Below, piece by piece: positions 13,867 to 31,604 of a stretch of DNA of 33,280 nt (position 1 is the stretch's first letter; each line of letters starts with the position of its first letter). The notes below the pieces were generated by a model. That model made no database searches. It had not been told where the DNA came from and saw nothing but the letters and a program-made list of their open reading frames with translations. The stretch covers positions 1 to 33,280 of the IMG/VR virus record IMGVR_UViG_2700989274_000006; one strand, given 5' to 3'. The stretch is from a virus. Taxonomy: Duplodnaviria; Heunggongvirae; Uroviricota; Caudoviricetes. Position numbers and translations under genes: made by a program.

Positions 13867-14089
13867 TAGGTGTCCACCTGCAAATTAAGTGGGGGCTTAA
13901 GTTACAGGATAGTGGTTTCAGAGCCAGACGTTTTTGAGACAACGCTTACTCTAAACCCAAGCGTAAATGTCTATTATTGGCAAAATACCACCAGCCAACA
14001 TGAGCTGTGATGTAAAGTTGACACTGCTACAGTTACATGAGCCTGTTTATATTCTAAATAAATTCAGATAGATATTATCTCCGTGAATC

Positions 14090-14128
14090 CCCCGCCTCCC
14101 TGACCGGAGCGCGGGAATTTTTGTTTTT
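14090..14128 (+). terminator. Hairpin plus T-tract; candidate late-operon terminator (tR'-like) upstream of the lysis region
   Basis: GCCCGCCTCC ... GGAGCGCGGG imperfect stem followed by AATTTTTGTTTTT; a TTGACA hexamer lies at 14018-14023, but no convincing -10 was found. Confidence 0.35.
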
Positions 14129-14252
14129 CACGCTGAGAACCCTGTATGAATAAAACTGATGGCCTTCAGGCCCTGGAAAAACCGCTGGCGTCGCTTCCCG
14201 ATACGCTTCGCCAGCTTATTCTTGAACGTATTCAGAATCTGACCCACTACGA

Positions 14253-14262
14253 NNNNNNNNNN
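14253..14262. other. Assembly gap (10 N)
   Basis: Run of n characters; interrupts a plus-strand ORF that begins MNKTDGLQALEKP at 14146. Confidence 0.99.
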
Positions 14263-14281
14263 GCCACCGACGGCATTGCGG

Positions 14282-14695
14282 TCAGAAAAAGATGATATTG
14301 AATCGCCCATTGAAAAACTGGAGGGCAGCGTCGCTGATCTGAATAAAAAATTGTCGGTGCTGATTCCTTCTGAAGATGAAAAAAAACGCCGCGATGAGCA
14401 GTTTGCGGCGTTTTACGATTATTGCATTGAAGTTACTCTCGCAGGAATTTTGTGAAGATTTTTGAGGAGGGTAAATCTCTTCAGTAAGCTTAATGGCGGA
14501 CGCTGCAATTAATTCAGGAAGGTCCGCAAGGTCATCTGTCAGTGGATATGATGAAAAATCGGCGGCAGTTCTGTTAAGAAGCGCTTTAACTAATTCCTTT
14601 TCCTTCTCCGGCAACAAGTTGATTAGAGCTACGACTGCTTGCCTGAGTGCGATTAAATCAGCAAAAGTTTGTTTAGGTAGATTTGTGTAATCCAT
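14282..14695 (-). CDS. Hypothetical protein (extent uncertain)
   Basis: ORF with AGAGG about 9 nt upstream of the ATG at 14695; its C-terminal half overlaps a plus-strand reading frame that crosses the gap, so the true coding extent is ambiguous. Confidence 0.3.
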   Translation of the reverse strand: MDYTNLPKQTFADLIALRQAVVALINLLPEKEKELVKALLNRTAADFSSYPLTDDLADLPELIAASAIKLTEEIYPPQKSSQNSCESNFNAIIVKRRKLLIAAFFFIFRRNQHRQFFIQISDAALQFFNGRFNIIFF

Positions 14696-14808
14696 AGTCG
14701 CCTCTGTGTTTATCAGATTGACATCCTCCTCCCGCCAGTGCCCATCACTGGTGAGGTAAGATTTAACATATCCGGGGATTTGAAGCCGATAAATCCTGAT
14801 AAATATCC

Positions 14809-15836
<1,028 letters not shown>

Positions 15837-16087
15837 ATTAATATTAAATCGGATTATTTTTAGCGCTGAATGTGAAATTTAAATAAAAAGGACTCTTCCA
15901 TGAGTCAAAATCCTTGAAATCTTAAGGGTAAGATAAAAGGTCATTAGACAGAATGACACGTTTTATTAATAAATAAAGCTATTGTTTCATTCGTGTGTTT
16001 TTCTTTACAAAAGTAATCCTTGCTATGGTTGGTTAATCATGCGTTAATGGTGTTCTGGTTTGTTACAAAATTATCTGAAGCAGTCAT

Positions 16088-16096
16088 TGTTATAAT
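16088..16096 (+). promoter_or_regulatory. Extended -10 element (TGtTATAAT), candidate promoter for the csp gene
   Basis: tgttataat at 16088-16096, about 105 nt upstream of the csp ATG, which would give the long 5' UTR typical of cold-shock genes; no good -35. Confidence 0.3.
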
Positions 16097-16199
16097 TTTA
16101 TTATTTGTACCTCTTGAGATTTCCTTGTTGGTTTTTCTCTCTGATATTTTTTTTCGGACCATTCTGCCCAAGGGCTAACTTCTTCAAAAGGTAATAATG

Positions 16200-16412
16200 A
16201 TGTCTAACAAAATGACTGGTTTAGTGAAATGGTTTAACCCTGAAAAAGGTTTTGGTTTCATCACGCCGAAAGATGGTAGCAAAGATGTGTTTGTCCATTT
16301 CTCAGCTATTCAGAGCAACGATTTCAAAACGTTAACTGAGAATCAGGAAGTCGAATTTGGTATTGAGAACGGACCTAAAGGCCCCGCGGCTGTTCATGTT
16401 GTGGCACTTTGA
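16200..16412 (+). CDS. cspI: CspA-family cold-shock protein (CspI-like, prophage-borne)
   Basis: 70 aa; [38 protein letters not shown] contains the RNP1/RNP2 motifs; the sequence matches my recollection of E. coli Qin-prophage CspI. Confidence 0.85.
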
Positions 16413-16611
16413 GGTAGAAAATATTACAAACCATATTCACTTTAGATGCCCGTGTTGCCATGGTTCTCAGTATAGAACATCATCTTTTGATGTTTCTGAC
16501 AGGAATCCTTTCGGGGCAAAATGTATCTTTTGTAAATCAATGATGATTACATTTGATAATATTTCACAATACTTAAATGTTAGCCGTCTATCGTTAGATT
16601 TAAGAAAGTGA
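16396..16611 (+). CDS. Possible small zinc-ribbon protein
   Basis: CPCCHG...(21 aa)...CIFC pairs of Cys; ATG at 16396 overlaps the csp 3' end; no clear RBS; ends 7 nt before a strong terminator. Confidence 0.25.
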
Positions 16612-16618
16612 AAATGAA

Positions 16619-16640
16619 GGCTCCTTCGGGAGCTTTTTTG
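16619..16640 (+). terminator. Rho-independent terminator (UUCG tetraloop)
   Basis: GGCTCC-TTCG-GGAGC followed by TTTTTT. Confidence 0.7.
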
Positions 16641-16723
16641 CTTAGTGTCTAGTCGATGGATACTCACATATTACGGTAACATTATGAAAAAAAATAATAG
16701 TTTTTTTTAACTCTGAACCAGCA

Positions 16724-16915
16724 ATGGTAGTGCCAGTGATGACCGGAGTTAACACCATCATGCGTGAATATCCAAATGGCGAAACAACACACCTCACTGT
16801 AATGGCTGCAGGGTTTCCATCTCTGACCGGAGATCATAAAGTCATTTATGTAGCAGCGGATCGACATGTAACTTCAGAAGAAATTCTGGAAGCAGCAATG
16901 AGACTCTTGAATTGA
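16724..16915 (+). CDS. Hypothetical small protein
   Basis: 63 aa ORF; no recognised motif. Confidence 0.3.
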   Translation: MVVPVMTGVNTIMREYPNGETTHLTVMAAGFPSLTGDHKVIYVAADRHVTSEEILEAAMRLLN

Positions 16916-17084
16916 TTTGATTCTAATGCATTGATAATAAATGATAATCATCTTTATCTGTTTGTGTGAAATTTAGACCGTCGTATGTTGATTATTGCGA
17001 TGTTTCATCTTATCTTTTATACGTTTGCTCCATATAATTGACACTACTGTGTACCAGGAAAGTCATAACAGACTAAAAGAGGAA

Positions 17085-17261
17085 ATGATGAACATTGAAG
17101 AGTTAAAAACAAAAACAGAAGCAGATATTTCTGAATATATAACAAAAAAAATCATTGAGCTTAAGAAAAAGACCGGGAAAGAAGTTACCAGTATCCAGTT
17201 TACTGCACGGGAAAAAATGACTGGTCTTGAAAGCTATGATATCAAGATTGATTTAATCTAG
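17085..17261 (+). CDS. GnsA/GnsB-family protein (prophage moron)
   Basis: MMNIEELKTKTEADISEYITKKIIELKKKTGKEVTSIQFTAREKMTGLESYDIKIDLI matches the Gns family; AAGAGGA upstream of the ATG at 17085. Confidence 0.7.
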   Translation: MMNIEELKTKTEADISEYITKKIIELKKKTGKEVTSIQFTAREKMTGLESYDIKIDLI

Positions 17262-17554
17262 TCTGTTTAGTATTAGCATCAATTTCTCATCAGATGCTAT
17301 TCAACAATACAAATTACCCATAAACCTCGTTTTTACGGGGTTTTGTTATATTTAAACATTACCGAATAGGTATAAATCTCGATTGTCGATGGTATTGGTT
17401 GTGTGACAATACCTAGTCTTTCCGGTATGCCTGAAGAGAATACAAACGACAGATTATGTAAGGGAAACGCGCTGAATCTTTAACTCTTTCATGCTGAGTG
17501 ATTTGACGTTATATTTTTAGCCGTAAGTGAAGAGCAAACGCATGGAGCGACAAA

Positions 17555-17761
17555 ATGCATAAAGATCAATACACTGATGCCCCCTCCCAGGAGCAGGTTC
17601 GTGTAAAAACTATGCTTAATAGCACCATTTCGATGGGTTACCCGGATGTTGTAATTGCATGTATAGAACATCAAGTGTCTCTGGAAGCATTCAGGGCAAT
17701 TGAGGCCGCGTTAGTAAAGCACGATAAGAATACGAAGGATTATTCCCTGGTGGTTGACTGA
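17555..17761 (+). CDS. Hypothetical small protein
   Basis: 68 aa ORF with GGAG 8 nt upstream of the ATG; no recognised motif. Confidence 0.4.
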
Positions 17762-18127
17762 TCACCATAACTGCTAACCATTCTGACCATTTCACAAGTG
17801 ACAGAGTCAATATCGTATTCTGTCACTGTCAGGCTAATACAGCAATGCAATTCAACTACAGCAATGCCTCGTATTTAGGTGAATTTACAATATCGTCCAG
17901 TTCGGATGCCGGCTGCATTTCTGAAGATAAGGCATTTCGGTTCTCGTATTTTCCCCTCATGCTCGTCAGTCCTGCGCGTAGTAAGAAACAGGACACTCAC
18001 ACTAATTTGTGTGGGCATGCTGTGATGTCCTTCTGAATTATCCCCATGCCATTATGTAAAGCTCTGTTTCAGATGCTCGTCACGGTTGTCAGGCTGTCGG
18101 GTCCTCCCAGTGGGGGTCCCTGCCACG

Positions 18128-18139
18128 GGGCGGGAGCGT
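18128..18139 (+). other. Candidate cosN cohesive-end site of the prophage
   Basis: acg-GGGCGGGAGCGT-cgcgg closely resembles lambda acg-GGGCGGCGACCT-cgcgg (9 of 12 positions, identical flanks); lies 196 nt upstream of the Nu1-like ATG at 18324, versus ~190 nt in lambda. Confidence 0.55.
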
Positions 18140-18323
18140 CGCGGAAAAAGGCTAGTTTTTGCATTTCCATGGCGGCGGCAGCATGTTTGGTAATTTATTG
18201 ATAATTAAAAGTTATTTCTCTTTTCAGCTGTACAATATTTTTTTCTCCCTGTCATTAGACTAGTTTGCAATTAATTGAAATATATAAATAAACCTGATTT
18301 TCACCTGCCAGATGGAGTTGCTT

Positions 18324-18851
18324 ATGTCAAATGTGAGCGGGATCGGTGATGCTTATTACTGGAGTGTTTTTAAAATCGCCGAGGCCTTTGGGCTTCACTG
18401 GGACACAGTAAAAAAACGGCTCCTCGCGGCCAACACTCCTGTGGCTGCGACTGTCAGGGGGAACCCCGTTTACGCCCTGCAGCATGTCGGGCCTGCCCTG
18501 TTTAGTGTGAAGCATGAGGCAGCAGACTCTGTTCATGATCCATCCCGTATGGAGCCGAAAGAGAGAAAGGACTGGTACCAGTCGGAAAATGAAAGGATCA
18601 AGCTGGAAAAGGAGCAGCGAAAACTCATCCCCGTTGATGAAGTAGTCATCGTCTATTCGTCCATGAGAAAGGCTGTCGTCCAGGTTCTGGAGACAATTCC
18701 GGATGTTCTTGAACGCGATTGCGCCCTGACTCCTCAGGCCGTTGGCGTTGTACAGCAGGCCATTGATGACCTGCGATACACTCTTCAGGAAAAATCCTAC
18801 GAGGCTTGTGCTGCTGAATTAATTCCTGATGAGGAAGGAGAGAGTCTCTAG
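18324..18851 (+). CDS. Terminase small subunit (Nu1-like)
   Basis: N-terminal winged-HTH-like pattern similar to lambda Nu1; immediately upstream of the large terminase; an alternative ATG at 18312 is in frame. Confidence 0.65.
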   Translation: MSNVSGIGDAYYWSVFKIAEAFGLHWDTVKKRLLAANTPVAATVRGNPVYALQHVGPALFSVKHEAADSVHDPSRMEPKERKDWYQSENERIKLEKEQRKLIPVDEVVIVYSSMRKAVVQVLETIPDVLERDCALTPQAVGVVQQAIDDLRYTLQEKSYEACAAELIPDEEGESL

Positions 18852-18859
18852 GAGGAATA

Positions 18860-20959
18860 ATGGGTTTTTCATCAGCCCGAAATTTGGGAAGGGACATATC
18901 GGCAGGATTTTCCCCACCACGTCGCATGCCGATTTCGGAGGCTGTTAAAAAATTCATGCGTGTTCCCAAGGGGGCTGGTAACTCGGTGCCATGGGATCCT
19001 GAACTGACACCCTACATCATTGAGCCCATGAACTGCCTGGCATCGCGTGAATACGATGCGGTGATTTTTGTTGGTCCTGCGCGAACAGGGAAGACCATTG
19101 GTCTGATCGATGGATGGATTGTCTATACCATCGTTTGCGATCCTTCGGACATGCTCGTTGTGCAGATGACCGAAGATAAGGCCCGCGAGCATTCAAAAAA
19201 GCGCCTCGACAGAACGTTCAGAAGCAGTGCGGCGGTAAAGAAAAGAATGAGTCCACGTCGTAATGACAATAATGTCCATGATAAGACGTTCAGGGATGGC
19301 TCGTTCCTTAAAATTGGTTGGCCCTCGGTCAACATTATGTCGTCGTCGGATTACCGGTTTGTCGCCTTAACCGATTACGACCGTTTTCCGGAGAATATCG
19401 ACAGCGAGGGTGATGGTTTCTCCCTGGCCTCAAAACGTACCACCACATTTATGTCCGCCGGGATGACTCTGGTGGAGAGCTCGCCGGGACGTGACATCTG
19501 CGACAGCAAATGGCGACGTAAGTCGCCTCATGAAGCGCCACCGACGACTGGTATTCTTTCCCTTTACAATCGTGGTGACCGCCGCCGCTGGTACTGGCCA
19601 TGTCCGCACTGCGGTGAATATTTTCAGCCAGCCATGGATGCCATGACCGGCTACCGTAATGAACCGGATCCCTTTAAAGCCAGTGAGGCGGCGTATCTAC
19701 TTTGCCCGCACTGCAGCGGCATTATCACGGCGGAGAAAAAGCGTGAGCTCAATAGTGCAGGAGTCTGGTTGCGTGAAGGTCAGGTCATTGATTGTAACGG
19801 CAACGTTTCCGGTGAACCGCGCCGCTCCCGTATCGCCAGTTTCTGGATGGAAGGGCCAGCTGCTGCGTATCAGACCTGGGCGCAACTGGTTTACAAATTA
19901 CTGACTGCAGAACAGGAGTATGAAGCGACAGGAAGTGAAGAAACACTCAGGGCGGTTATCAACACCGACTGGGGATTACCTTATCTTCCCCGCGCCAGCA
20001 TGGAGCAACGAAAAAGTGAACTGCTTGAGCAGCGGGCAGAGCCAGTTCCTTCCCGCAGTGTGCCGGATGGCGTTAATTTTCTTGTGGCGACAGTGGATGT
20101 GCAGGCGGGACGTCATCGCCGTTTTGTGGTTCAGGTAACGGGCTATGGCAGCCGTGGCGAACGCTGGATTATTGATCGTTACAACATCACGCAGTCATTG
20201 CGCGGTGACAGCGACGGGGAGAGCCAGCGAATTGATCCGGCCAGCTATCCGGAAGACTGGGATGTCCTGCTGACGGATGTTTTTCATAAAAGCTGGCCGC
20301 TGGCCTCCGATCCTTCTCAACAAATGCGACTGATGGCAATGGCGGTGGACTCCGGCGGTGAAGACGGGGTCACTGATAATGCCTATAAATTCTGGCGTCG
20401 TTGCCGTCGTGATGGCCTTGGTAAACGTATTTACCTGTTTAAGGGCGACAGCATCCGGCGCGCAAAACTGATCACCCGTACATTCCCTGATAACACCGGA
20501 CGAACGGGCCGACGGGCGCAGGCCGCAGGTGATGTGCCGCTCTGGCTTCTTCAGACGGATGCACTGAAAGACCGGGTGAATAACGCGTTATGGCGTGACT
20601 CGCCAGGTCCCGGCTATGTGCATTTCCCTGACTGGCTGGGGAGCTGGTTTTACGACGAACTGACGTATGAAGAGCGGAGCAGTGACGGGAAATGGAGTAA
20701 GCCGGGTCGCGGTGCCAACGAAGCTTTTGACCTGATGGTGTATGCCGAGGCTCTGGTCATTCTGCATGGATACGAAAAGATCCGCTGGCCGGATGCACCG
20801 GAGTGGGCGAGCCGGGAAACCTGGCTGGAGTGTGTCCCGGACAGTACCGAACCGTCATCCTCACCGGAACCGGTATCCACGCCTGTTAAAAAACAAAAAC
20901 GGAAGAAAACAGTAACTGACGATGTTAACCCCTGGCTGACTTCCGGAGGATGGTTATGA
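18860..20959 (+). CDS. Terminase large subunit (GpA family)
   Basis: 699 aa; AGGAGG RBS; GpA-family signature YWPCPHCGEYF (lambda ACPHCGEEQY); matching gene order. Confidence 0.9.
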   Translation: MGFSSARNLGRDISAGFSPPRRMPISEAVKKFMRVPKGAGNSVPWDPELTPYIIEPMNCLASREYDAVIFVGPARTGKTIGLIDGWIVYTIVCDPSDMLVVQMTEDKAREHSKKRLDRTFRSSAAVKKRMSPRRNDNNVHDKTFRDGSFLKIGWPSVNIMSSSDYRFVALTDYDRFPENIDSEGDGFSLASKRTTTFMSAGMTLVESSPGRDICDSKWRRKSPHEAPPTTGILSLYNRGDRRRWYWPCPHCGEYFQPAMDAMTGYRNEPDPFKASEAAYLLCPHCSGIITAEKKRELNSAGVWLREGQVIDCNGNVSGEPRRSRIASFWMEGPAAAYQTWAQLVYKLLTAEQEYEATGSEETLRAVINTDWGLPYLPRASMEQRKSELLEQRAEPVPSRSVPDGVNFLVATVDVQAGRHRRFVVQVTGYGSRGERWIIDRYNITQSLRGDSDGESQRIDPASYPEDWDVLLTDVFHKSWPLASDPSQQMRLMAMAVDSGGEDGVTDNAYKFWRRCRRDGLGKRIYLFKGDSIRRAKLITRTFPDNTGRTGRRAQAAGDVPLWLLQTDALKDRVNNALWRDSPGPGYVHFPDWLGSWFYDELTYEERSSDGKWSKPGRGANEAFDLMVYAEALVILHGYEKIRWPDAPEWASRETWLECVPDSTEPSSSPEPVSTPVKKQKRKKTVTDDVNPWLTSGGWL

Positions 20960-21168
20960 ACCAGAATGATATCGAAGCCATGATTCAGCGTTATACGGAA
21001 GCTGAAATGGCGGTGCTGGACGGAAAATCCGTCACCTTTAATGGTCAGCAGATGACCATGGAAAACTTATCTGAGATCCGGCAGGGACGGCAGGAGTGGG
21101 AGCGCCGCCTTGCGGCTCTGATTACACGACGACGGGGGCATCCCGGGTATCGGCTGGCGAGGTTCTGA
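20956..21168 (+). CDS. Head-tail joining protein (lambda W-like)
   Basis: 70 aa; GGAGGA RBS; size, position and C-terminal RRRG motif resemble lambda gpW. Confidence 0.65.
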   Translation: MNQNDIEAMIQRYTEAEMAVLDGKSVTFNGQQMTMENLSEIRQGRQEWERRLAALITRRRGHPGYRLARF

Positions 21169-22676
21169 TGGCAATTCTTGATGATGTGATTGGCGTTTTT
21201 TCACCAGGATGGAAAGCGGCAAGGCTGCGTTCCCGTGCGGTGATCCAGGCTTATGAGGCCGTAAAAACGACGCGGACACACAAAGCCCGACGGGAGAACC
21301 GAACTGCCGACCAGTTAAGCCAGTACGGGGCCGTGTCGTTACGTGAGCAGGCCCGTTACCTTGATAACAACCACGATCTGGTTATTGGTGTATTTGACAA
21401 GCTGGAAGAACGGGTGGTGGGGAAAAACGGGATTATTGTCGAGCCACATCCGGTATTACGCAATGGGGCCATTGCCCGTGACCTGGCTGCGGAGATTCGC
21501 ACCCGATGGAGTGAATGGTCTGTCAGCCCGGAAGTCACCGGGCAGTTTACCCGTCCGATGCTGGAACGTCTGATGCTTCGTACCTGGCTGCGCGATGGTG
21601 AGGTGTTTGCCCAGATGGTTTCCGGGCGCATAAACAGCCTGACGCCTTCTGCCGGTGTTCATTTCTGGCTGGAGGCGCTCGAGCCGGACTTTATTCCCAT
21701 GACCAGTGATGAGAGCAACAGGCTGAATCAGGGCGTGTTTGTTGATGACTGGGGGCGTCCCGAAAAATATCTGGTGTATAAAAGCCGTCCCGTATCCGGA
21801 CGGCAGATGGAAACCAAAGAAGTGGATGCAGAGCGAATGCTGCATCTTAAATTTGTTCGCCGTCTGCACCAGATGCGCGGGACGTCTTTATTGTCCGGTG
21901 TGCTGATCCGCCTCAGTGCTCTGAAAGAGTATGAAGATTCTGAGCTGACTGCAGCAAGGATCGCCGCTGCTCTGGGGATGTACATCCGGAAAGGCGACGG
22001 GCAGAGCTATGAAGCGGATGGTAATGGCAGCAAGGATAAGGAACGCGAGCTTACCATTCAGCCAGGCATTATTTACGATGATCTGAAACCCGGCGAAGAA
22101 ATCGGAATGGTGAAGTCGGATCGCCCCAATCCTAACCTTGAAACTTTTCGTAATGGTCAGTTGCGTGCCGTGGCGGCGGGCAGTCGTCTGAGTTTTTCCA
22201 GTACAGCGCGCAACTATAACGGCACTTACAGCGCCCAGCGTCAGGAGCTGGTTGAATCCACTGATGGCTACCTGATCCTGCAGGACTGGTTTATTGGTGC
22301 CGTCACCCGTCCGATGTATCGTGCCTGGCTGAAACAGGCTGTGGCATCCGGTGTTATCAGGCTACCCCGCGATCTTGACCGTTCTTCACTGTATACCGCG
22401 GTGTATTCCGGACCGGTGATGCCGTGGATTGACCCTGTTAAGGAGGCTGAGGCCTGGAAAATCCAGATTCGTGGTGGAGCGGCGACAGAATCAGACTGGG
22501 TACGTGCTGGTGGTCGTAATCCGGATGATGTCAAACGTCGGCGCAAGGCCGAAATTGATGAAAACCGCAAGCTGGATCTGGTATTTGATACCGATCCGGC
22601 CAGTGATAAAGGAGGCAGCAGTGCCGCAACGAAACGACATGAGCCGCAGCACACCGACGACCAGTCCGAAGAATAA
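21168..22676 (+). CDS. Portal protein (lambda B-like)
   Basis: ~502 aa; ATG overlaps the W stop (ATGA); position between W and the prohead protease; the longest ORF begins at 21096. Confidence 0.8.
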   Translation: MAILDDVIGVFSPGWKAARLRSRAVIQAYEAVKTTRTHKARRENRTADQLSQYGAVSLREQARYLDNNHDLVIGVFDKLEERVVGKNGIIVEPHPVLRNGAIARDLAAEIRTRWSEWSVSPEVTGQFTRPMLERLMLRTWLRDGEVFAQMVSGRINSLTPSAGVHFWLEALEPDFIPMTSDESNRLNQGVFVDDWGRPEKYLVYKSRPVSGRQMETKEVDAERMLHLKFVRRLHQMRGTSLLSGVLIRLSALKEYEDSELTAARIAAALGMYIRKGDGQSYEADGNGSKDKERELTIQPGIIYDDLKPGEEIGMVKSDRPNPNLETFRNGQLRAVAAGSRLSFSSTARNYNGTYSAQRQELVESTDGYLILQDWFIGAVTRPMYRAWLKQAVASGVIRLPRDLDRSSLYTAVYSGPVMPWIDPVKEAEAWKIQIRGGAATESDWVRAGGRNPDDVKRRRKAEIDENRKLDLVFDTDPASDKGGSSAATKRHEPQHTDDQSEE

Positions 22677-24648
22677 TTCCTGGTTCAGGATGCAGGCTGG
22701 TCACCAGAGTGACGCGGATATTTATATTTATGACGAGATTGGTTTCTGGGGTGTTACAGCGAAGCAGTTTATCAGTGATCTGAATGCACTGGGCGATATC
22801 ACCCACATTAATCTCCATATTAATTCACCGGGTGGCGATGTCTTTGAAGGCATCGCCATTTTTAATGCGCTGAAAACACATGGTGCGTCCATTACCGTTT
22901 ATGTCGACGGTGTGGCGGCGTCAATGGCGTCGGTCATTGCGATGGTGGGAAACCCGGTCATTATGCCGGAAAACACCTTCATGATGATTCATAAACCATT
23001 TGGCTTTACGGGCGGTGATGCGGAGGACATGCGCACCTATGCCGACCTGCTCGATAAAGTTGAGGCGGTTCTGTTACCCGCTTATGCACAGAAAACCGGG
23101 AAAACCACCGATGAAATTGCTGCCATGCTGGCGGATGAGACCTGGATGTCCGGTGCCGAATGTCTGGCACATGGATTTGCTGATCAGGTAACGCCAGCCG
23201 TTAAGGCAATGGCATGTATTCAGTCAAAACGTACAGAGGAATTTAAAAAGATGCCGGAATCCATTCGAAACATGATTACTCCGCCACGCAACAGTGCTCC
23301 ACGCGTACAGGATAATGAACCTGAAGCCTCCCGGACGCCAGTGCAGGCAGCAGCACCCGTGGTGGATGAAAACAGCATCCGTGCGCAGGTACTGGCAGAG
23401 CAAAAAGCGCGTGTAAACGGTATTAATGATCTGTTTGCCATGTTTGGCGGGCGTTATCAGACGCTGCAGGCTCAGTGTCTTGCCGATCCTGAATGTTCGC
23501 TGGAGCAGGCCCGCGAAAAGCTGTTGAACGAGATGGGGCGCGAGTCCACGCCATCCAATAAAAATACCCCGGCTCATATTTATGCCGGTAACGGTAATTT
23601 TGTGGGGGACGGGATCCGCCAGGCGCTGATGGCGCGTGCCGGATTTGAAAAAACCGAACGTGATAATGTCTACAACGGGATGACCCTGCGTGAATATGCC
23701 CGTATGTCACTGACTGAACGGGGTATTGGGGTTTCCAGTTATAACCCGATGCAGATGGTCGGTGCGGCGTTCACACACAGTACGTCTGACTTCGGTAATA
23801 TTCTGCTGGATGTTGCGAACAAAGCCATTCTGCAGGGCTGGGAAGATGCCCCTGAAACCTATGAACAGTGGACGCGGAAAGGTCAGTTGTCTGATTTTAA
23901 AATTGCCCATCGTGTGGGTATGGGTGGCTTCAGTGCTCTGCGTCAGGTGCGTGAAGGGGCGGAATATAAATACGTCACCACCGGAGATAAACAGGCCACT
24001 ATTGCACTGGCGACCTATGGCGAGCTGTTCAGTATCACCCGTCAGGCCATTATCAATGATGATCTGAATATGCTGACCGATGTCCCGATGAAACTGGGCC
24101 GTGCGGCGAAATCCACTATTGCCGATCTGGTTTATGCCATTCTGACGTCTAACCCGAAAATCTCCACAGATAATGTAAGTCTGTTCGATAAAGCGAAACA
24201 TGCAAACGTACTGGAGAGCGCTGCAATGGACGTGGCATCGCTGGATAAAGCCCGCCAGTTGATGCGCGTTCAGAAAGAGGGGGAGCGTCATCTGAATATT
24301 CGTCCTGCGTTCGTACTGGTACCGACGGCGATGGAGTCTGTTGCTAACCAGGTCATTCGCTCCTCAAGTGTCAAGGGGGCTGACATTAACGCCGGTATTA
24401 TTAACCCGGTGAAAGATTTTGCGACCGTTATTGCAGAGCCTCGTCTTGATGATAACAGCCAGACCACCTTCTACCTGGCTGCGTCAAAAGGCTCCGATAC
24501 GATTGAAGTGGCTTATCTCAACGGTGTGGATACGCCATATATTGATCAGATGGAGGGCTTCAGTGTGGATGGCGTGACAACGAAAGTGCGTATTGACGCC
24601 GGTGTCGCGCCAGTTGATCACCGCGGTCTGGTGAAATGTACGGCGTAA
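22639..24648 (+). CDS. Prohead protease (ClpP/S49-like) fused to major capsid protein
   Basis: N-terminal protease motifs HINSPGGDVFEGIAIFNAL and GVAASMASVIAM; C-terminal ~330 aa resembles Mu gpT-type major head subunits; start uncertain (22639 or 22690). Confidence 0.7.
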   Translation: MSRSTPTTSPKNNSWFRMQAGHQSDADIYIYDEIGFWGVTAKQFISDLNALGDITHINLHINSPGGDVFEGIAIFNALKTHGASITVYVDGVAASMASVIAMVGNPVIMPENTFMMIHKPFGFTGGDAEDMRTYADLLDKVEAVLLPAYAQKTGKTTDEIAAMLADETWMSGAECLAHGFADQVTPAVKAMACIQSKRTEEFKKMPESIRNMITPPRNSAPRVQDNEPEASRTPVQAAAPVVDENSIRAQVLAEQKARVNGINDLFAMFGGRYQTLQAQCLADPECSLEQAREKLLNEMGRESTPSNKNTPAHIYAGNGNFVGDGIRQALMARAGFEKTERDNVYNGMTLREYARMSLTERGIGVSSYNPMQMVGAAFTHSTSDFGNILLDVANKAILQGWEDAPETYEQWTRKGQLSDFKIAHRVGMGGFSALRQVREGAEYKYVTTGDKQATIALATYGELFSITRQAIINDDLNMLTDVPMKLGRAAKSTIADLVYAILTSNPKISTDNVSLFDKAKHANVLESAAMDVASLDKARQLMRVQKEGERHLNIRPAFVLVPTAMESVANQVIRSSSVKGADINAGIINPVKDFATVIAEPRLDDNSQTTFYLAASKGSDTIEVAYLNGVDTPYIDQMEGFSVDGVTTKVRIDAGVAPVDHRGLVKCTA

Positions 24649-24671
24649 ACGTCGCAGACAACAACTCTGAT

Positions 24672-24691
24672 GGCCCGTAAGGGCTTTTTTT
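24672..24691 (+). terminator. Weak intrinsic terminator after the capsid gene
   Basis: GGCCC-GTAA-GGGCT followed by a T7 run; short stem. Confidence 0.4.
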
Positions 24692-24734
24692 GTACCTGAA
24701 ATCAGCCCCTGAACGGGGCTGTGCGGAGACAGTT

Positions 24735-25058
24735 ATGGCAAAGAATTTTGTAGAAGAAGGAAAAACGGTGGCGATTGTTGCCAGTGCAGCCATCAGCAGC
24801 GGAGATCTGGTGCAGGTGGGTGATGTTTTTGCGGTGGCGCTGACCGATATTCCACAGGGTGAAACAGGCGACGGCATGACCGAAGGTGTGTTTATCCTGC
24901 CTAAACTGAAAACGGATGACATGAAAACGGGTAAGAAGGTTTATCTGAAGTCCGGAAAAGTTCAGCTGACTAACAGCGGCTCTGATCCGCTGGTCGGGGT
25001 TGTCTGGGCAGATGCCGGAACCAGTGCAGAAGAAGTGCCGGTAAAACTCAATGTCTGA
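24735..25058 (+). CDS. Putative head accessory/decoration protein
   Basis: 108 aa ORF directly after the capsid gene; assignment is by position and a vague recollection of a DUF2190-type family only. Confidence 0.35.
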   Translation: MAKNFVEEGKTVAIVASAAISSGDLVQVGDVFAVALTDIPQGETGDGMTEGVFILPKLKTDDMKTGKKVYLKSGKVQLTNSGSDPLVGVVWADAGTSAEEVPVKLNV

Positions 25059-25326
25059 TCCCTTTTCCCGGCTGGCAGCGCGTATGGATGCGATCACGGT
25101 CAGAAAGATGGGAAAGACAGCCTCGATTAATGATGTCGATATGGCTGTGATCCCGGGCGAAACACTGGCAGAGCTGAATGCTCTGTCCGGACCTGCGGTC
25201 TCTCTGGTGGTGTTTTCTTCGGGATACCGCCCACGGCGCGGGGATCGCGTTGTTTATGACGGACAACAATGGACGGTCACACGGCATGAACGTTTTAACG
25301 GTAAGCCAATGATCTTTATTGAGTAA
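25051..25326 (+). CDS. Head-tail attachment protein (lambda FII-like)
   Basis: 91 aa; F..L.A, MGK.A.I and RRGD...W.V pattern resembles lambda gpFII; located before Z. Confidence 0.5.
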   Translation: MSDPFSRLAARMDAITVRKMGKTASINDVDMAVIPGETLAELNALSGPAVSLVVFSSGYRPRRGDRVVYDGQQWTVTRHERFNGKPMIFIE

Positions 25327-25337
25327 AGAGGTGTGGG

Positions 25338-25916
25338 ATGAAGGGGCTTGAGAATGCCATCCGCAATCTGAACAGCCTTGATACCCGTATGGTGCCACAG
25401 GCCAGCGCATGGGCGATAAACCGTGTGGCACAGAAAGCGGTCTCGGTTGCCACCCGGCAGGTTGCCGGGAATACCGTTGCGGGAGATAACCAGGTGAAAG
25501 GGATCCCCCTGAAACTGGTACGTCAGCGTGTCCGGGTGTTTAAAGCCAGTCCGTCAGGAAAAATGACGGCCAGGATCCGCGTTAACCGGGGCAATCTGCC
25601 CGCCATTAAGCTGGGGACAGCCCGGGTCAGACTGGCCCGGCGTGGTGGAAAACTGCAGTACCGTGGCAGTGTGCTGAAGGTGGGTAAATATCTTTTCCGG
25701 GATGCGTTTATTCAGCAACTGGCGAATGGTCGCTGGCATGTGATGCGGCGTATTGATGGCAAAAATCGTTACCCCATTGATGTGGTGAAAATCCCGCTTT
25801 CCGGACCGCTGACACAGGCATTTGAAGATGCCCGCGACCGCATCATTGCTGCGGAAATGCCGAAACAGCTGGGGTATGCACTGAAACAACAACTGAGGTT
25901 ATGGCTGACCCGATGA
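25338..25916 (+). CDS. Tail completion protein (lambda Z-like)
   Basis: 192 aa, the same length as lambda gpZ, and immediately upstream of a clear gpU homolog. Confidence 0.6.
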   Translation: MKGLENAIRNLNSLDTRMVPQASAWAINRVAQKAVSVATRQVAGNTVAGDNQVKGIPLKLVRQRVRVFKASPSGKMTARIRVNRGNLPAIKLGTARVRLARRGGKLQYRGSVLKVGKYLFRDAFIQQLANGRWHVMRRIDGKNRYPIDVVKIPLSGPLTQAFEDARDRIIAAEMPKQLGYALKQQLRLWLTR

Positions 25917-26314
25917 ACCGACATACACAAATCCGCCAGGCCGTACTGGCACGCCTTCGGGAACAGTGTGGAGACAGCGCCACGTTTTTTGACGGGCTTC
26001 CGGCATTTATTGATGCGCAGGAACTGCCTGCCGTGGCGGTGTGGCTGAGTGATGCTCAGTACACCGGAAAAATGACGGATGAAGATGACTGGCAGGCTGT
26101 TCTGCATATTGCTGTCTTCATCCGGGCACAGGCACCGGATTCAGAGCTGGATATGTGGATGGAGAGCACCATTTTCCCGGCTCTGAATGATATACCGGCA
26201 CTTTCCGGACTCATCGACACCCTGATCCCTCTCGGTTTTAACTATCAACGTGATAATGAGATGGCCACCTGGGCGATGGCGGAAATCACGTACCAGATCA
26301 CGTACACGAATTAA
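25913..26314 (+). CDS. U: Tail terminator protein U
   Basis: Strong similarity to lambda gpU: ATFFDG, PAVAVWLSDAQYTGK, PDSELDMWMES, DIPALSGLI, ITYQITY; start at 25913 overlaps the Z stop (ATGA). Confidence 0.9.
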   Translation: MNRHTQIRQAVLARLREQCGDSATFFDGLPAFIDAQELPAVAVWLSDAQYTGKMTDEDDWQAVLHIAVFIRAQAPDSELDMWMESTIFPALNDIPALSGLIDTLIPLGFNYQRDNEMATWAMAEITYQITYTN

Positions 26315-26319
26315 AGGAG

Positions 26320-27069
26320 GTGGCAATGACCACACCAAATCCACTGGCAAAAACGAAAGGTGCGGGAACGACGTTCTGGATGTACACCGGCAAGGGCGAT
26401 GCGTTTGCGAACCCTTTATCGGACACTGACTGGCTGCGTCTTGCGATGGTGAAGGATCTGCAACCTGGCGAAATGACCGCTGATGCAGAAGATGACACTT
26501 ATCTCGATGATGAAGATGCAGACTGGAAAACGACAACCCAGGGGCAGAAATCCGTCGGTGATACTTCGGCGACGCTGGCCTGGCGTCCGGGTGACAGCGG
26601 ACAGAAAAAACTGGTTCAGTTGTTCGACTCCGGTGAAGTCTGCGCGTTTCGTATCAAATATCCCAACGGCACTGTTGATGTTTTCCGTGGCTGGCTGAGC
26701 TCACTGGGTAAAACCATTGCCTCAAAAGACGTGATGACCCACACAGTGAAAATCAGCGGTGTGGGGCGTCCGTATCTGGCAGAGGAAGGCACTGAAACAG
26801 TGAGCGTTACCGGGCTGACGGTGGCACCGGCATCTGCCAGTGTAAAAGTGGGAGCAACCACCACGCTGACCTTTACAGTAAAACCTGACGGAGCCAGTGA
26901 CAAAGCGATCAGTGTGCATTCGACAGATCCACAGACTGCCACGGTGACCCTGAACGGGCTTGTGGCCACGGTGAAAGGCGTGAAGCAGGGCAGTGTCAGC
27001 ATTGTGGGCATGACTTCTGACGGCGATTTTGTGGCAGTGGCTGCGGTGGCTGTCAGCGCCGCAGGTTAA
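26320..27069 (+). CDS. V: Major tail protein V with C-terminal Ig-like domain
   Basis: Strong similarity to lambda gpV: KGAGTT, ANPLSD, YLDDEDADW, QGQKS.GDTS.TLAW, PNGTVDVFRGW. Confidence 0.9.
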   Translation: MAMTTPNPLAKTKGAGTTFWMYTGKGDAFANPLSDTDWLRLAMVKDLQPGEMTADAEDDTYLDDEDADWKTTTQGQKSVGDTSATLAWRPGDSGQKKLVQLFDSGEVCAFRIKYPNGTVDVFRGWLSSLGKTIASKDVMTHTVKISGVGRPYLAEEGTETVSVTGLTVAPASASVKVGATTTLTFTVKPDGASDKAISVHSTDPQTATVTLNGLVATVKGVKQGSVSIVGMTSDGDFVAVAAVAVSAAG

Positions 27070-27089
27070 CAGGACGATACTCATCATTT

Positions 27090-27113
27090 GCCCCGGTTAT
27101 CCGGGGCTTTTTT
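27090..27113 (+). terminator. Strong intrinsic terminator between V and G
   Basis: GCCCCGG-TTAT-CCGGGGC perfect 7-bp stem followed by TTTTTT. Confidence 0.7.
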
Positions 27114-27126
27114 GCAGGTGGAGAAC

Positions 27127-27516
27127 ATGATGTTTCTGAAACAGGGCACGTTTAATTATGAAAAGCAGTCCGTGGTGCTCAGTGAGCTGTCCGGGCTGCA
27201 GAGAATTGAATATCTGGCGTTTGTTCAGCAGCGAACGGCAAAGTTTGATGCCGAAGAGGGAGAACTGCCGGAGGCTGAACGACAGATTGCTTTTCTGCGG
27301 ATGGGGATGGATATCAATGCCTGGCTGGTTTCCCGCTCACTGTGGAATGCGGAACAGTCTCAGGATGTTGAGACGCTTTGCGCATCCGTTATTACAACAT
27401 GGTCGTATGATGCCCTGGGAGCGGGGGCGGAGATGGTTCTGTCGCTGAGCGGTATGGGAGCCATTGAGAATGCCGGGGATTTGGAGCATGAGGTGCTGAC
27501 GCCGGAAAAGTCCTGA
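27127..27516 (+). CDS. G: Tail assembly chaperone G
   Basis: Similarity to lambda gpG (MFLK..., VLSELSGLQRIEYLA, SLW); GGTGGAG RBS; start is at an internal Met of the longer ORF. Confidence 0.8.
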   Translation: MMFLKQGTFNYEKQSVVLSELSGLQRIEYLAFVQQRTAKFDAEEGELPEAERQIAFLRMGMDINAWLVSRSLWNAEQSQDVETLCASVITTWSYDALGAGAEMVLSLSGMGAIENAGDLEHEVLTPEKS

Positions 27517-27854
27517 CGCGGGAAATGCAGTTTGTCATGCGGCTTGCCCGGGAGTTCAGGCGGGCAGACTGGCGGCGGATGCTGTCGGAAATGTCGGCCA
27601 CTGAGCTTGGTGAGTGGGGCGATTATTTCCGGATGCAGAGCTTCAGTGATGTGTGGATGGATGCGCAGTTTGCCTCGCTGAAGGCATTGATCGTGAGAAT
27701 GGTGTCCGGCAGCAGTGATGCTGCGGTGGCTGATTTCAGCCTTTTACCGGAAGAGAACGGGATACCGGAGCGAACGGACGAAGAACTGATGCATCTTGGG
27801 GAAGGTATTTCCGGAGGTGTGCGTTATGGACCAGATAGCCAACCTGGTCATTGA
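27504..27854 (+). CDS. T: T segment of the G-T tail assembly chaperone, reached by -1 programmed frameshift
   Basis: The -1 frame is open from 27492 and encodes a gpT-like sequence (RADWRRMLSEMSATELGEWGDYF ... GISGGVRYG); candidate slip site GGAAAAG at 27504-27510 inside the 22-nt overlap. Confidence 0.75.
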   Translation, partial: GKVLTREMQFVMRLAREFRRADWRRMLSEMSATELGEWGDYFRMQSFSDVWMDAQFASLKALIVRMVSGSSDAAVADFSLLPEENGIPERTDEELMHLGEGISGGVRYGPDSQPGH

Positions 27855-30800
27855 TTTGGGGATTGATGCGGCAGAGTTTAAAAATGAAATTCCCCGTATC
27901 AAAAACCTTCTGAATGGTGCAGCCAGCGATGCAGAACGGTCTTCTGCCCGTATGCAGCGTTTTATGGAGCGTCAGACTCAGGCCGCCCGGCAGACAACGC
28001 AGGCGGCGTCTTCGGCTGCAACAGCCGCATCCGTCCATGCGCAGACGGTGGAGAAGAACGCACAGGCTCATGAACGCATGGCCCGCGAGGTGGAGAAAAC
28101 CCGCCAGCGTATGGAGGCACTGAGCCAGAAAATGCGCGAGGAACAGGCGCAGGCCATGGCTCTGGCGGAGGCTCAGGATAAAGCAGCTGCTGCGTTTTAT
28201 CGTCAGATTGACAGTGTGAAACAGGCCAGTGCGGGGCTGCAGGAATTACAGCGTATTCAGCAGCAGATCCGACAGGCCAGAAACAGTGGCGGGATTGGTC
28301 AGCAGGATTATCTGGCGCTGATTTCTGAGGTTACGGCGAAAACCCGTGTTCTTACGCAGGCTGAGGAAGAGGCTACCCGACAGAAAGTGGCGTTTATCCG
28401 TCAGCTTAAAGAGCAGGCAACCCGCCAGAATCTTTCTTCTTCTGAGTTGCTTCGTGCTAAGGCTGCCCAGCTGGGGGTAAGCAGTGCTGCAGAAGTGTAT
28501 ATCCGCAAAATGGAGCAGGCAGGAAAAGCCACGCATTCGCTGGGTCTGAAAAGTGCAGCGGCCCGCCAGGAGATAGGCGTTCTGATAGGTGAACTGGCCC
28601 GCGGCAATTTAGGGGCGCTGAGGGGATCCGGGATAACGCTGGCTAACCGTGCCGGATGGATAGACACTCTGATGTCACCGAAAGGCATGATGCTTGGCGG
28701 GGTTATTGGCGGTATTGCCGCGTCCGTCTATGGTCTGGGTAAAGCCTGGTATGACGGTCAGAAGGAGGGGGAAGAATTTAACCGCCAGTTGTCGCTGACG
28801 GGGCATTATGCCGGAGTCACTGCCGGGCAGCTGTGGACGCTCAGTCGTGCTATTTCCGGGAATGGTATCACGCAACATGCTGCAGCCGGTGTGCTGGCTC
28901 AGGTGGTGGGGAGTGGTGCATTTCGTGGAAACGATATCGGTATGGTGGCGAGAGCTGCCGCACAGATGGAGCGATCGGTTGGCCAGTCGGTCAGCGATAC
29001 CATAAATCAGTTTAAGCGGCTGAAGGATGATCCTGTAAATGCCGCGAAGGCTCTGGACAATGAGCTGCATTTTCTTACTGCCACTCAGCTTGAGCAGATA
29101 CGTGTCCTTGGGGATCAGGGACGGTCCAGTGATGCTGCACGGATAGCCATGTCTGCACTGGCAGAGGAAACCGGTCGGCGTACTGCGGATATTGATAATA
29201 ACCTCAATGCGCTTGGCAGTACGCTGAAGTATCTGTCTGATTTATGGAGTCGTTTCTGGGATGCGGCCATGAATATTGGTCGTGAAGACTCGCTGGATGA
29301 ACAGATTGCCGCTTTACAGGAGAAAGTGTCGCGGGCGAAAAGACTCCCCTGGACGGCATCATCTTCTCAGGTTGAATACGATCAGCAGCGTCTTAACGAT
29401 CTTCAGGAGAAAAAACGCCAGAAGGATTTGCAGGATGCAAAAGAGCAGGCAGAGCGGAATTATCAGGAGCAACAGAAACGACGTAATGCTGAAAATGCTG
29501 CACTGAACCGGATGAATGAAACGGAAGCAGCACGACATCAGCGTGAAATTGCGCGTATTAATGCCATGCAGTACGCCGATCAGGCTGTCAGGGATGCAGC
29601 GATACAACGTGAAAATGAACGTTACGAGAAAGCCCTGGCATCCGGTAAGAAAAAAACACGCGAAACCCGTAATGATGAGGCCACCCGGTTATTGCTGCAG
29701 TACAGTCAGCAACAGGCACAGGTGGAAGGACAGATTGCTGCTGCAAGACAGTCAGCAGGCATTGCCACTGAAAAGATGACAGAAGCGCATAAACAGCTTC
29801 TGGCTCTGCAGCAGCGCATCAGCGATCTGGACGGGAAAAAACTGACGGCAGATGAAAAGAGTGTGCTGGCCCGTAAAGATGAACTGATTCAGGCACTGAC
29901 GCTGCTGGATGTAAAACAGCAGGAGCTTCAGAAACAGACGGCACTCAACGATCTGAAGAAAAAAACAATTCAGCTGACCAGTCAACTGGCTGAAGAAGAG
30001 CTCGCTCAGCGTCAGCAACATGACCTGGATATCGCCACGGTGGGTATGGGTGATCAGCAGCGGCAGCGATATCAGGTACAACTGAGTCTTCGCCAGAAAT
30101 ACCAGCAACAGCTGGAGCAGTTGAGGCGGGATAGTGAGCAGAAAGGGACATATAACACGGATGACTACAGAAAGGCCGAGCAGGCGCTGACGGAGAGCCT
30201 GAACCGACAACTGAATGAGAATCGCCGTTACTGGCAACAGCTTGAAGTTGTGCAGGGTAACTGGAAAAACGGAGTCCTGCGTGCATTTCAGGATTTTACC
30301 GTGGATGCAGACAATACGGCAGGAACAGCAGAACAGGTGTTCTCGTCAGCCTTCAGCAACATGGGAAATGGCCTGGCAACTTTTGTCACTACCGGCAAAC
30401 TCAACTTCAAATCCTTCACCTCTTCGGTGCTGTCAGATATGGCGAAAATCCTGGCGCAGGCAACCATGATGAAATCGATAAAAGGGATTGGCAGTGTACT
30501 GGGATTTGATCTCAGCAGCCTTTCCCTGAATGCCAATGGGGGGATTTATCAGTCTGCTGATTTGAGTCGTTACAGTGGCACGGTGGTTAACCGTCCGACG
30601 TTTTTTGCTTTTGCAAAAGGCGCGGGTGTGATGGGGGAAGCGGGACCTGAAGCCATTCTGCCACTGCGTCGTGGTGCTGACGGTAAGCTGGGGGTTGTGG
30701 CGGATATTGGTGGTTCAGGTATGGCGATGTTTGCCCCGCAGTACAACATCGAGATCAATAACGATGGCACGAACGGGCAGATAGGTCCGGCTGCCCTGAA

Positions 30801-30891
30801 GGTGGTTTATGACCTTGGGAAAAAAGCGGCAGCGGACTTTATGCAACAGCAGGCCCGTGATGGTGGTCGGTTAAGTGGAGCATATCGGTAA
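27826..30891 (+). CDS. H: Tail tape measure protein (lambda H-like)
   Basis: ~1021 aa; GGAGGTG RBS; long Q/A/E/R-rich coiled-coil region; conserved C-terminal tape-measure block (GGIYQSADLSRYSGTVVNRPTFFAFAKGAGVMGEAGPEAILPLRRGADGKLGV); position after G-T. Confidence 0.9.
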   Translation: MDQIANLVIDLGIDAAEFKNEIPRIKNLLNGAASDAERSSARMQRFMERQTQAARQTTQAASSAATAASVHAQTVEKNAQAHERMAREVEKTRQRMEALSQKMREEQAQAMALAEAQDKAAAAFYRQIDSVKQASAGLQELQRIQQQIRQARNSGGIGQQDYLALISEVTAKTRVLTQAEEEATRQKVAFIRQLKEQATRQNLSSSELLRAKAAQLGVSSAAEVYIRKMEQAGKATHSLGLKSAAARQEIGVLIGELARGNLGALRGSGITLANRAGWIDTLMSPKGMMLGGVIGGIAASVYGLGKAWYDGQKEGEEFNRQLSLTGHYAGVTAGQLWTLSRAISGNGITQHAAAGVLAQVVGSGAFRGNDIGMVARAAAQMERSVGQSVSDTINQFKRLKDDPVNAAKALDNELHFLTATQLEQIRVLGDQGRSSDAARIAMSALAEETGRRTADIDNNLNALGSTLKYLSDLWSRFWDAAMNIGREDSLDEQIAALQEKVSRAKRLPWTASSSQVEYDQQRLNDLQEKKRQKDLQDAKEQAERNYQEQQKRRNAENAALNRMNETEAARHQREIARINAMQYADQAVRDAAIQRENERYEKALASGKKKTRETRNDEATRLLLQYSQQQAQVEGQIAAARQSAGIATEKMTEAHKQLLALQQRISDLDGKKLTADEKSVLARKDELIQALTLLDVKQQELQKQTALNDLKKKTIQLTSQLAEEELAQRQQHDLDIATVGMGDQQRQRYQVQLSLRQKYQQQLEQLRRDSEQKGTYNTDDYRKAEQALTESLNRQLNENRRYWQQLEVVQGNWKNGVLRAFQDFTVDADNTAGTAEQVFSSAFSNMGNGLATFVTTGKLNFKSFTSSVLSDMAKILAQATMMKSIKGIGSVLGFDLSSLSLNANGGIYQSADLSRYSGTVVNRPTFFAFAKGAGVMGEAGPEAILPLRRGADGKLGVVADIGGSGMAMFAPQYNIEINNDGTNGQIGPAALKVVYDLGKKAAADFMQQQARDGGRLSGAYR

Positions 30892-31220
30892 TGGAGACGT
30901 TTCACTGGAAAGTGCGCCCGGATATGAATGTGGTATCAGAGCCGAAAGTGGTGACAGTGAAGCTGGGCGATGGTTATGAACAGCGTCGTGCGGCGGGACT
31001 GAATAACCAGTTGTCGACTTACAGCGTGACGATACGTGTTCGTAAATGTGAACACCCATCTTTAAAAGCCTTTCTGGAACGGCACGGTGGCGTCCGCGCA
31101 TTTCAGTGGACGCCACCTTATGACTGGAAGCCGATCAGGGTGGTTTGTCGTAAATGGTCGGCAAGCGTGGGGGCGTTGTGGGTAACCATAACGGCAGATT
31201 TTGAACAGGTCGTGGCATAG
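30891..31220 (+). CDS. M: Minor tail protein M
   Basis: 109 aa, the same length as lambda gpM; similar motifs GDGYEQR, LSTYSVT, FLERHGG, WTPPYDW, FEQVV; start overlaps the H stop (TAATG). Confidence 0.9.
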   Translation: METFHWKVRPDMNVVSEPKVVTVKLGDGYEQRRAAGLNNQLSTYSVTIRVRKCEHPSLKAFLERHGGVRAFQWTPPYDWKPIRVVCRKWSASVGALWVTITADFEQVVA

Positions 31221-31229
31221 GAGTCTCTG

Positions 31230-31594
31230 ATGCAGGATATTCCACAGGAAACACATCATGAGACGACACGCCTCACTCAGTCAGCCCAGGTGGTGCTCTG
31301 GGAAATCGATCTGACAGTGGTCGGTGGAGAACGTTATTTTTTCTGTAATGAGCAGAACGAAAAAGGTGAGCCGATCACCTGGCAGGGGCGACAGTATCAG
31401 GCGTATCCCATTCAGGGGACGGGATTTGAACTGAACGGCAAGGGCAGTGCTGCCCGTCCGACACTGACGGTTTCTAACCTGCACGGCATGGTCACCGCGA
31501 TGGCGGAAGACCTGCAGAGTCTGGTCGGAGGAACGGTGGTCCGGCGTAAGGTTTACGCCCGTTTTCTGGATGCGGTGAACTTCGTCAACGGAAN
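31230..31594 (+). CDS. L: Minor tail protein L (3' end truncated by assembly gap)
   Basis: Near-identity to the lambda gpL N-terminus (MQDI.QET, VVLWEIDLT.VGGERYFFCNEQNEKGEP.TWQGRQYQ.YPIQG.GFELNGKG, VVRRKVYARFLDAVNFVNG); the ORF runs into the N run at 31595. Confidence 0.9.
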
Positions 31595-31604
31595 NNNNNN
31601 NNNC
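31595..31604. other. Assembly gap (10 N)
   Basis: Run of n characters; the sequence after it is unrelated to phage tail genes. Confidence 0.99.

Follow-up and report, generated by a model that had tools for sequence, protein, structure and literature searches.

The 33,280-nucleotide viral record IMGVR_UViG_2700989274_000006 (hereafter the window) carries on its plus strand the late region of a lambdoid prophage, from the endolysin gene to the tail gene L, which the initial annotation had described as a probably defective remnant with neither an early region nor the antiterminator gene Q nor a holin gene. Our data indicate that the segment 14263-31593 is very probably a single short-read contig from the late region of a Qin-type lambdoid prophage and that its apparent truncation is an artefact of the assembly. 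In the real chromosome, this module most likely extends upstream into a gene for an S21-type pinholin, Q and the genes for replication and immunity, and downstream into L, K, I, J, lom and a tail fibre gene.

The window is identical base for base to JRSJ01000075.1 (GCA_001413745.1) over the fetched overlap (4282-33280), both runs of N included. These runs have exactly 10 N each (14253-14262 and 31594-31603). The first falls inside the stretch of 13.9-14.8 kb that had been inspected for Q and the holin, and position 31594, where the prophage had been taken to end, is the opening base of the second. The window consists of three contigs from three chromosomal loci, namely a CP4-6-like island that includes a remnant of IS66, the late region of the phage and the yncH-yncG region:

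1-14252: contig 1, CP4-6-like island, unrelated to the phage
11994-13866, minus strand: internally deleted IS66 remnant (identified by its IS66 domains)
14146-14250: first 35 codons of a YkfA/YeeP-type GTPase gene, 107 bases of which precede the N run
14253-14262: 10-N spacer between contig 1 and contig 2, without adjacency information
14263-31593, plus strand: contig 2, the phage late region (17.3 kb)
31594-31603: 10-N spacer between contig 2 and contig 3
31604-33280: contig 3, unrelated to the phage, with yncH (32375-32587, minus strand) and yncG (32663-33280, minus strand)

In closed genomes, the three pieces lie at separate loci, at 0.32 Mb for intF (ECC-1470), 2.43-2.47 Mb for the rspB-ydfK interval (THO-008) and 2.42 Mb for yncGH (strain 2452), and no two of them adjoin in any closed E. 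coli genome. Positions 1-12043 are 100% identical to the intF/CP4-6-like island of E. coli ECC-1470. The GTPase gene in which contig 1 ends has 291 codons in full and is followed by a CP4-type island, not by phage DNA, in the closed genome 2013C-4282 and in the scaffold JRRN01000033.1. The final 64 bases or so of contig 1 before the N run are identical between diverged copies, as is characteristic of contigs that terminate within repeats. Contig 3 is 99.9% identical to many closed genomes, and in strain 2452 vgrG-rhs, which likewise belongs to a repeat family, is its natural neighbour on the left, at a distance of about 50 bp. No tRNA gene was found in the window. ORF (open reading frame) calls over the two joins are chimeric, with a 49-amino-acid product at the first and, at the second, a 129-amino-acid "L" ORF (31230-31619) that is partly artificial, its frame passing through the N run.

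The same phage contig was found in at least 13 other scaffolds whose accessions begin with JRR or JRS, at 100.000% identity over the fetched part (up to 16,697 bp), the records of the series having been located by exact-protein look-ups. Breaks at N runs, at window-equivalent positions 13766-14262 or 31530-31603, were observed in 12 of the 13 fetched scaffolds, all but one breaking within some 75 bp of the two contig edges. At the right edge, eight other scaffolds break at 31530-31603 and continue into eight different neighbours, one right-edge scaffold having 567 N in place of 10; at the left edge, spacers lie at 14189-14262 and the locus on the far side is different in nearly every scaffold. 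Among the loci past the breaks are luxS-gshA, nagE-glnS, the psp operon, a type II secretion cluster, the early region of another prophage and purU, together with pflAB, hha-tomB, nlpD-pcm, mhp-lacI, kdsA-prfA and others. Since these loci are unrelated, the joins hold no adjacency information. The JRR and JRS records (GCA_0014129xx-0014138xx) are pseudo-molecules of 0.15-4.7 Mb in which contigs are strung together by 10 N.

One scaffold of the series, JRRI01000005.1, has no N in the region of the module. Upstream of the identical module it carries cro, ydaT, a replication gene, DUF977, hok, DUF968, Q (PF06530), a lipocalin gene, ybgA, IS1, the holin gene and DUF1327, and downstream a full-length L (232 amino acids), K, I, J, lom and a tail fibre gene. 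The holin has 71 amino acids, belongs to PF04971 (phage-21 S-family, class II) and is encoded about 0.9 kb upstream of the endolysin gene; it bears an MKSM dual-start motif, and its hydropathy shows a single strong peak, over residues 37-53. JRSN01000059.1 likewise encodes a 71-amino-acid holin of PF04971 upstream of the identical module, and JRRM01000067.1 a 50-amino-acid PF04971 fragment that is cut by an N run. The expectation that the endolysin should have a pinholin partner is thus confirmed by a holin of the phage-21 S-family upstream of the identical module in JRRI01000005.1, and the statement that there is no holin is not supported, in view of this contiguous gene and of the annotation of essQ in closed genomes.

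At least 80% of the module is present in 831 closed (complete) E. coli genomes, and in the best of these (98.6-99.1% identity) the module is preceded by essQ, Q and early genes and followed by K-J-stf-pinQ. In CUPF06 and PCN061 (99.0-99.1%), the upstream distance to the contig start is 0.3-0.5 kb for essQ and about 4.5 kb for Q, and L is followed by K, I, J, lom, a tail fibre gene and pinQ. In THO-008, the entire prophage, from integrase to pinQ, is located between rspB and ydfK (the Qin site), and the match to the early region of the JRRI01000005.1 type ends at 2445344 with the match to the module starting at 2445326, so that the two directly abut. An early region, Q and a holin contiguous with this module were the observation that the initial annotation had itself named as speaking against its reading, and they are found in JRRI01000005.1 and in the closed genomes.

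The positions of the breaks are in agreement with the copy number of the sequences around them. For the 700 bases immediately before the contig (holin, ydfR), the median number of places per genome is 2 and the maximum 9; for the 1000 bases immediately after it (3' part of L, K), the corresponding values are 3 and 15. The phage contig stops at both edges because the sequence there turns multi-copy in the genome: the left break lies inside the ydfR/holin segment that is common to lambdoid prophages, and the right break inside L, before the conserved L-K-I genes.

A genuine defective remnant, in which the early region, Q and the holin gene were deleted, IS66 sits at the deletion point and the late module could perhaps be mobilised by a helper via cos, would account for the lack of Q, holin, repressor and replication genes in the window and for the IS66 remnant lying 0.4 kb to the left of the first N run, and prophages of this type do acquire insertions of the IS66 family, as with ISEc23 in the PCN061 terminase gene. 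We nevertheless consider it very unlikely, since a 10-N join parts the IS66 remnant from the phage, the contig with IS66 ends within a GTPase gene whose continuation, both in closed genomes and in a further scaffold of the series, leads into a CP4-type island, and the phage contig starts in the middle of the ydfR gene. Furthermore, the locus next to the identical contig changes from scaffold to scaffold in nearly all cases, and in one scaffold the contig is continuous with holin, Q and early genes, and a real deletion would not cut at the same two points where repeats begin. That the IS66 element abuts the place where Q would be is therefore not supported: the remnant and the GTPase stub belong to a different contig, beyond a 10-N join. 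The reported absence of repressor, replication genes, Q and holin is correct for the window but not confirmed as a property of the element, as the absences coincide with the 10-N joins. The terms remnant and probably defective are likewise not supported, the modules being contiguous in the gap-free JRRI01000005.1 and in closed genomes (98.6-99.1%); the essential modules do not appear to be physically deleted, as they would be in a defective remnant, and the full terminase, head and tail set sets the element apart from a helper-dependent cos satellite, which has cos without capsid and tail genes of its own. In the case where the Qin-type prophage of this isolate alone had truly lost its early region and distal tail genes, a cassette of cos and morphogenesis genes packageable by a co-resident lambdoid phage would be left, and we hold this to be highly improbable. 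The idea that the 10-N runs are genuine small gaps in a correctly ordered scaffold, the three pieces being true neighbours with only a few bases lost between them, finds an argument in the reading frame that crosses the first N run from the GTPase N-terminus to a C-terminal fragment, and for which the 49-amino-acid product is called. Its two halves, however, come from different families (the GTPase start and the C-terminus of DUF1327/PHROG 2091) and are not joined in any closed E. coli genome. Elsewhere in the series this phage edge adjoins many other loci, and in closed genomes each of the three pieces has its match at a locus of its own, which leaves this idea with a practically negligible probability. 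A single real gene over the first N run was rejected on account of the different families of its halves.

A different question is whether the complete module stands in a DLP12-like context (Q, porin, holin, ydfR) instead of a Qin-type one, or in a recombinant of both prophages. JRSN01000059.1 runs without N from a Q fragment through a gene for a 360-amino-acid porin, the PF04971 holin and DUF1327 into the identical module, and its upstream path, compared over the stretch equivalent to window 11555-14262, has 93% identity over 560 bp to that of JRRI01000005.1, the two being identical only over the last 242 bp beside the module. Since the paths are identical only over these 242 bp, at least two prophages probably share that junction, and the true upstream context is in some doubt. 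However, the best-matching closed genomes have the Qin-type upstream region, which in THO-008 directly abuts the module, and just upstream JRSN01000059.1 consists of very small contigs, with seven N runs within 1.6 kb. We regard the DLP12-like context as unlikely, and it would leave the main conclusion unchanged (holin and Q present, the truncation an artefact), the PF04971 holin being common to both paths.

Several points weigh against the interpretation as a Qin-type late region whose truncation is artefactual. The two upstream paths diverge either because the junction repeat is present in two prophages or because JRSN01000059.1 or JRRI01000005.1 was wrongly joined through that repeat. The IS1 between Q and the holin gene in JRRI01000005.1, the only potentially impairing feature seen, could affect late expression. 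Other scaffolds of the series and closed relatives are the basis on which the holin, Q (PF06530) and the early region are deduced for the exact isolate of the window; Q precedes the identical module in JRRI01000005.1 and is likewise found upstream in the closed genomes. Finally, the accession series and the shared, identical phage contig lead us to infer a common project or clone for the JRR and JRS records, and full-text searches for the whole-genome shotgun (WGS) accessions JRSJ, JRRI, JRSS, JRSN and JRRZ found no project paper.

Pfam and PHROGs profiles were used to assign the genes of the late region for every ORF, and these assignments bear out the lambda order of the genes on the plus strand from 14.8 to 31.6 kb. 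The late genes are all full length except L, cut by the contig end, and the DUF1327/ydfR-family gene, whose first 110 codons are removed by the contig start; the full protein of 173 amino acids is encoded in JRRI01000005.1 and in JRSN01000059.1. The gene list of the initial annotation stands as regards order and genes, with the exceptions that the small terminase is of the DUF1441 type and not of the Nu1 family, that L has only 121 codons and that a decoration gene was left out. The left end of the phage contig holds the following lysis genes and morons:

14264-14455, plus strand: last 63 codons of a DUF1327 (YdfR-family) gene (PHROG 2091 profile positions 111-168 of 183)
14282-14695, minus strand: antisense ORF of 137 amino acids lying between the ydfR-family and endolysin genes (PHROG 2572, a family of unknown function; E 5e-53)
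14809-15342, plus strand: RrrQ-type GH24 endolysin (PF00959)
15339-15836, plus strand: Rz-like i-spanin rzpQ (DUF2514; PHROG 312, "Rz-like spanin")
about 15517-15786, plus strand: Rz1-like o-spanin frame inside rzpQ, in the +1 frame, with a lipobox LTSC and a proline-rich tail
16197-17761, plus strand: morons cspI, ymcF/ynfQ-like, ynfN-like (63 amino acids), gnsB and a 68-amino-acid ORF (Pfam CSD, YmcF-like and GnsAB_toxin; PHROGs 3425 and 657)

The endolysin is homologous to the phage 21 endolysin 3HDE/3HDF (E 3e-17 for 3HDE) and to RrrD 4ZPU, and presents the triad E35-x8-D-x5-T at residues 35-50. Its N-terminus has a weakly hydrophobic, Ala/Ser-rich stretch at residues 7-27, with 56% Ala/Gly/Ser/Thr over residues 7-24 and a peak hydropathy of 1.75. 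The triad, this N-terminus and the homology to 3HDE are in agreement with the label of signal-arrest-release (SAR) endolysin, which appears reasonable by the criteria of PMC9239132. The definitive test for such an enzyme is an expression experiment on its membrane release by pinholin or depolarisation, and pinholins such as S21 68 are the usual partners of SAR endolysins (PMC9239132). The antisense ORF of 137 codons, without any Pfam or PADLOC match, overlaps the 3' end of the ydfR-family gene and is annotated in closed genomes as a hypothetical protein of 86-98 amino acids. The moron cluster has a low guanine-plus-cytosine content (35-39%), and its genes are likewise annotated in closed genomes.

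The packaging, head and tail genes follow the morons:

18128-18139, plus strand: cosN-like site GGGCGGGAGCGT, at which the genomes of related phages have their left terminus
18312/18324-18851, plus strand: small terminase, DUF1441 type (PF07278; PHROG 141, "terminase small subunit")
18860-20959, plus strand: large terminase, gpA type (PF05876, PF20454)
20956-21168, plus strand: head-tail adaptor of 70 amino acids in the W position
to 22676, plus strand: lambda-family portal
to 24648, plus strand: ClpP-like protease/major capsid fusion
24735-25058, plus strand: head decoration/cement protein, the gene missing from the initial list
25051-25326, plus strand: FII-position protein, Gifsy-2 family
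25338-31220, plus strand: tail genes Z, U, V, G, T, H and M
27826-30891, plus strand: tape measure H
30891-31220, plus strand: M
31230-31592, plus strand: L, codons 1-121 of 232, cut by the contig end

The records of phage cdtI (AB285204) and of Tritos (OV696610) both open precisely at window position 18128, with 98% identity. The opening of the cdtI record, GGGCGGGAGCGTCGCGG, is identical to the window, and the record ends with ...CTGCCACG, which corresponds to window 18120-18127. On the basis of these record termini cosN is placed at 18128-18139, and the cos site of the initial annotation is borne out at this predicted position, 184 bp upstream of the first candidate start of the small terminase (18312). 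The site differs from lambda cosN at 4 of 12 positions; a search for lambda cosN itself, GGGCGGCGACCT, with at most 3 mismatches gave no match near the terminase genes and no more matches than expected by chance. The small terminase falls outside the Pfam family of lambda Nu1. In the tail region, the T frame is -1 relative to G and open over the overlap, with G GAA AAG at 27504-27510 as a candidate slip site for a programmed -1 frameshift that would yield a G-T fusion, and the lambda G-T slip heptamer GGGAAAG (G GGA AAG) is not found in the G/T overlap. G GAA AAG is the sole candidate there, and re-pairing would be perfect only for the A-site lysine codon.

The mechanisms of lysis, packaging and assembly that we propose are those suggested by homology with lambda, phage 21 and cdtI. 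Late transcription, antiterminated by Q, would enter the module from upstream. The pinholin would depolarise the membrane and the SAR endolysin would thereby be released, the Rz/Rz1 spanins disrupting the outer membrane. The terminase, with its DUF1441-type small and gpA-type large subunits, is expected to cut cos at 18128 and to package the DNA via the lambda-family portal into a capsid that would be made of the ClpP-protease/capsid fusion and the decoration protein. The products of Z, U, V, G/G-T, H, M and L, then of K, I and J, would build a lambda-like flexible tail.

The contig to the left of the phage has a gene content of its own:

contig 1: intF, yagN-yagK, BRO-N, then an operon of GIY-YIG, DEAD-box helicase and MmeI-type IIG restriction-modification genes

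This operon (4786-11712, minus strand), located in the CP4-6-like island beside intF, encodes BRO-N, a T5orf172/GIY-YIG nuclease, a DEAD-box helicase and an MmeI-family type IIG enzyme. The latter is matched by the PADLOC model REase_MTase_IIG with E 3.5e-283; for the helicase and the GIY-YIG nuclease PADLOC gave no model above noise and no defence-system assignment. The three-gene arrangement of helicase, nuclease and type IIG enzyme may represent an undescribed accessory to a type IIG system. The TnpC of the IS66 remnant has 374-440 amino acids as against 512-537 in intact copies and is without the N-terminal leucine-zipper domain, and its TnpB, matched only over profile positions 2-73 of 101, overlaps the tnpC frame. 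The same remnant adjoins the same methyltransferase gene in several closed genomes. In PCN061, the closest closed genome to the phage contig (99.1%), an intact ISEc23 of the IS66 family interrupts the large terminase gene, a real IS66 inactivation in this prophage type at a position unlike the one that had been proposed for the window.

The prophage type is already known: closed E. coli genomes carry it by the hundred, and sequenced phages exist that share its morphogenesis genes. The biological importance of the present module is small, and the lesson is a practical one on contig-join artefacts in the JRR and JRS records: neighbourhoods, "truncations" and "IS-mediated deletions" read over their 10-N joins are not real.

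The closest relatives of the module are the Qin-type prophages of THO-008, CUPF06 and PCN061 (rspB / ydfK-ydfJ site), with 98.6-99.1% DNA identity over the whole 17.3-kb contig and the same content, from the partial ydfR, rrrQ, rzpQ, cspI, ymcF/ynfQ, ynfN and gnsB to terminase through L. No substantial difference was observed, the window having only the middle 17.3 kb because of the contig breaks; ynfN is called 13 codons shorter in the window (63 versus 76 amino acids). The cryptic prophage Qin of K-12 is presumably a degraded version that has lost the head and tail genes. Phage records of this type show 95-98.6% identity over 71-78% of the contig, and the morphogenesis type is the same as in cdtI, Tritos, mEp460 and Ayreon. 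In cdtI (AB285204 / NC_009514) and Tritos (OV696610), the stretch from cos to L is 98.1-98.6% identical, covering 77-78% of the contig, whereas the stretch from the lysis genes to cos is unlike the window; in cdtI a cassette of "lysis protein", lysin and Rz directly follows a DNA methylase gene, without the cspI/gnsB morons. The genome records of mEp460, Ayreon, HannyBb and PhiR40_1/PhiR47_1/PhiR55_1 in the INPHARED collection, which we take to be those of viable isolated phages, are 95-98% identical over the packaging, head and tail genes, with mosaic early and lysis regions that are unshared or only partly shared with the module. As regards lysis, the endolysin of the window has the same triad and a SAR-like N-terminus as in phage 21, where the S21 pinholin is paired with the R21 SAR endolysin (PMC9239132). 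In contrast to phage 21, the holin gene lies outside the window and, in JRRI01000005.1, is parted from the endolysin gene by the ydfR-family gene and the antisense ORF (about 0.9 kb), and the spanin of the module is of the DUF2514 type.

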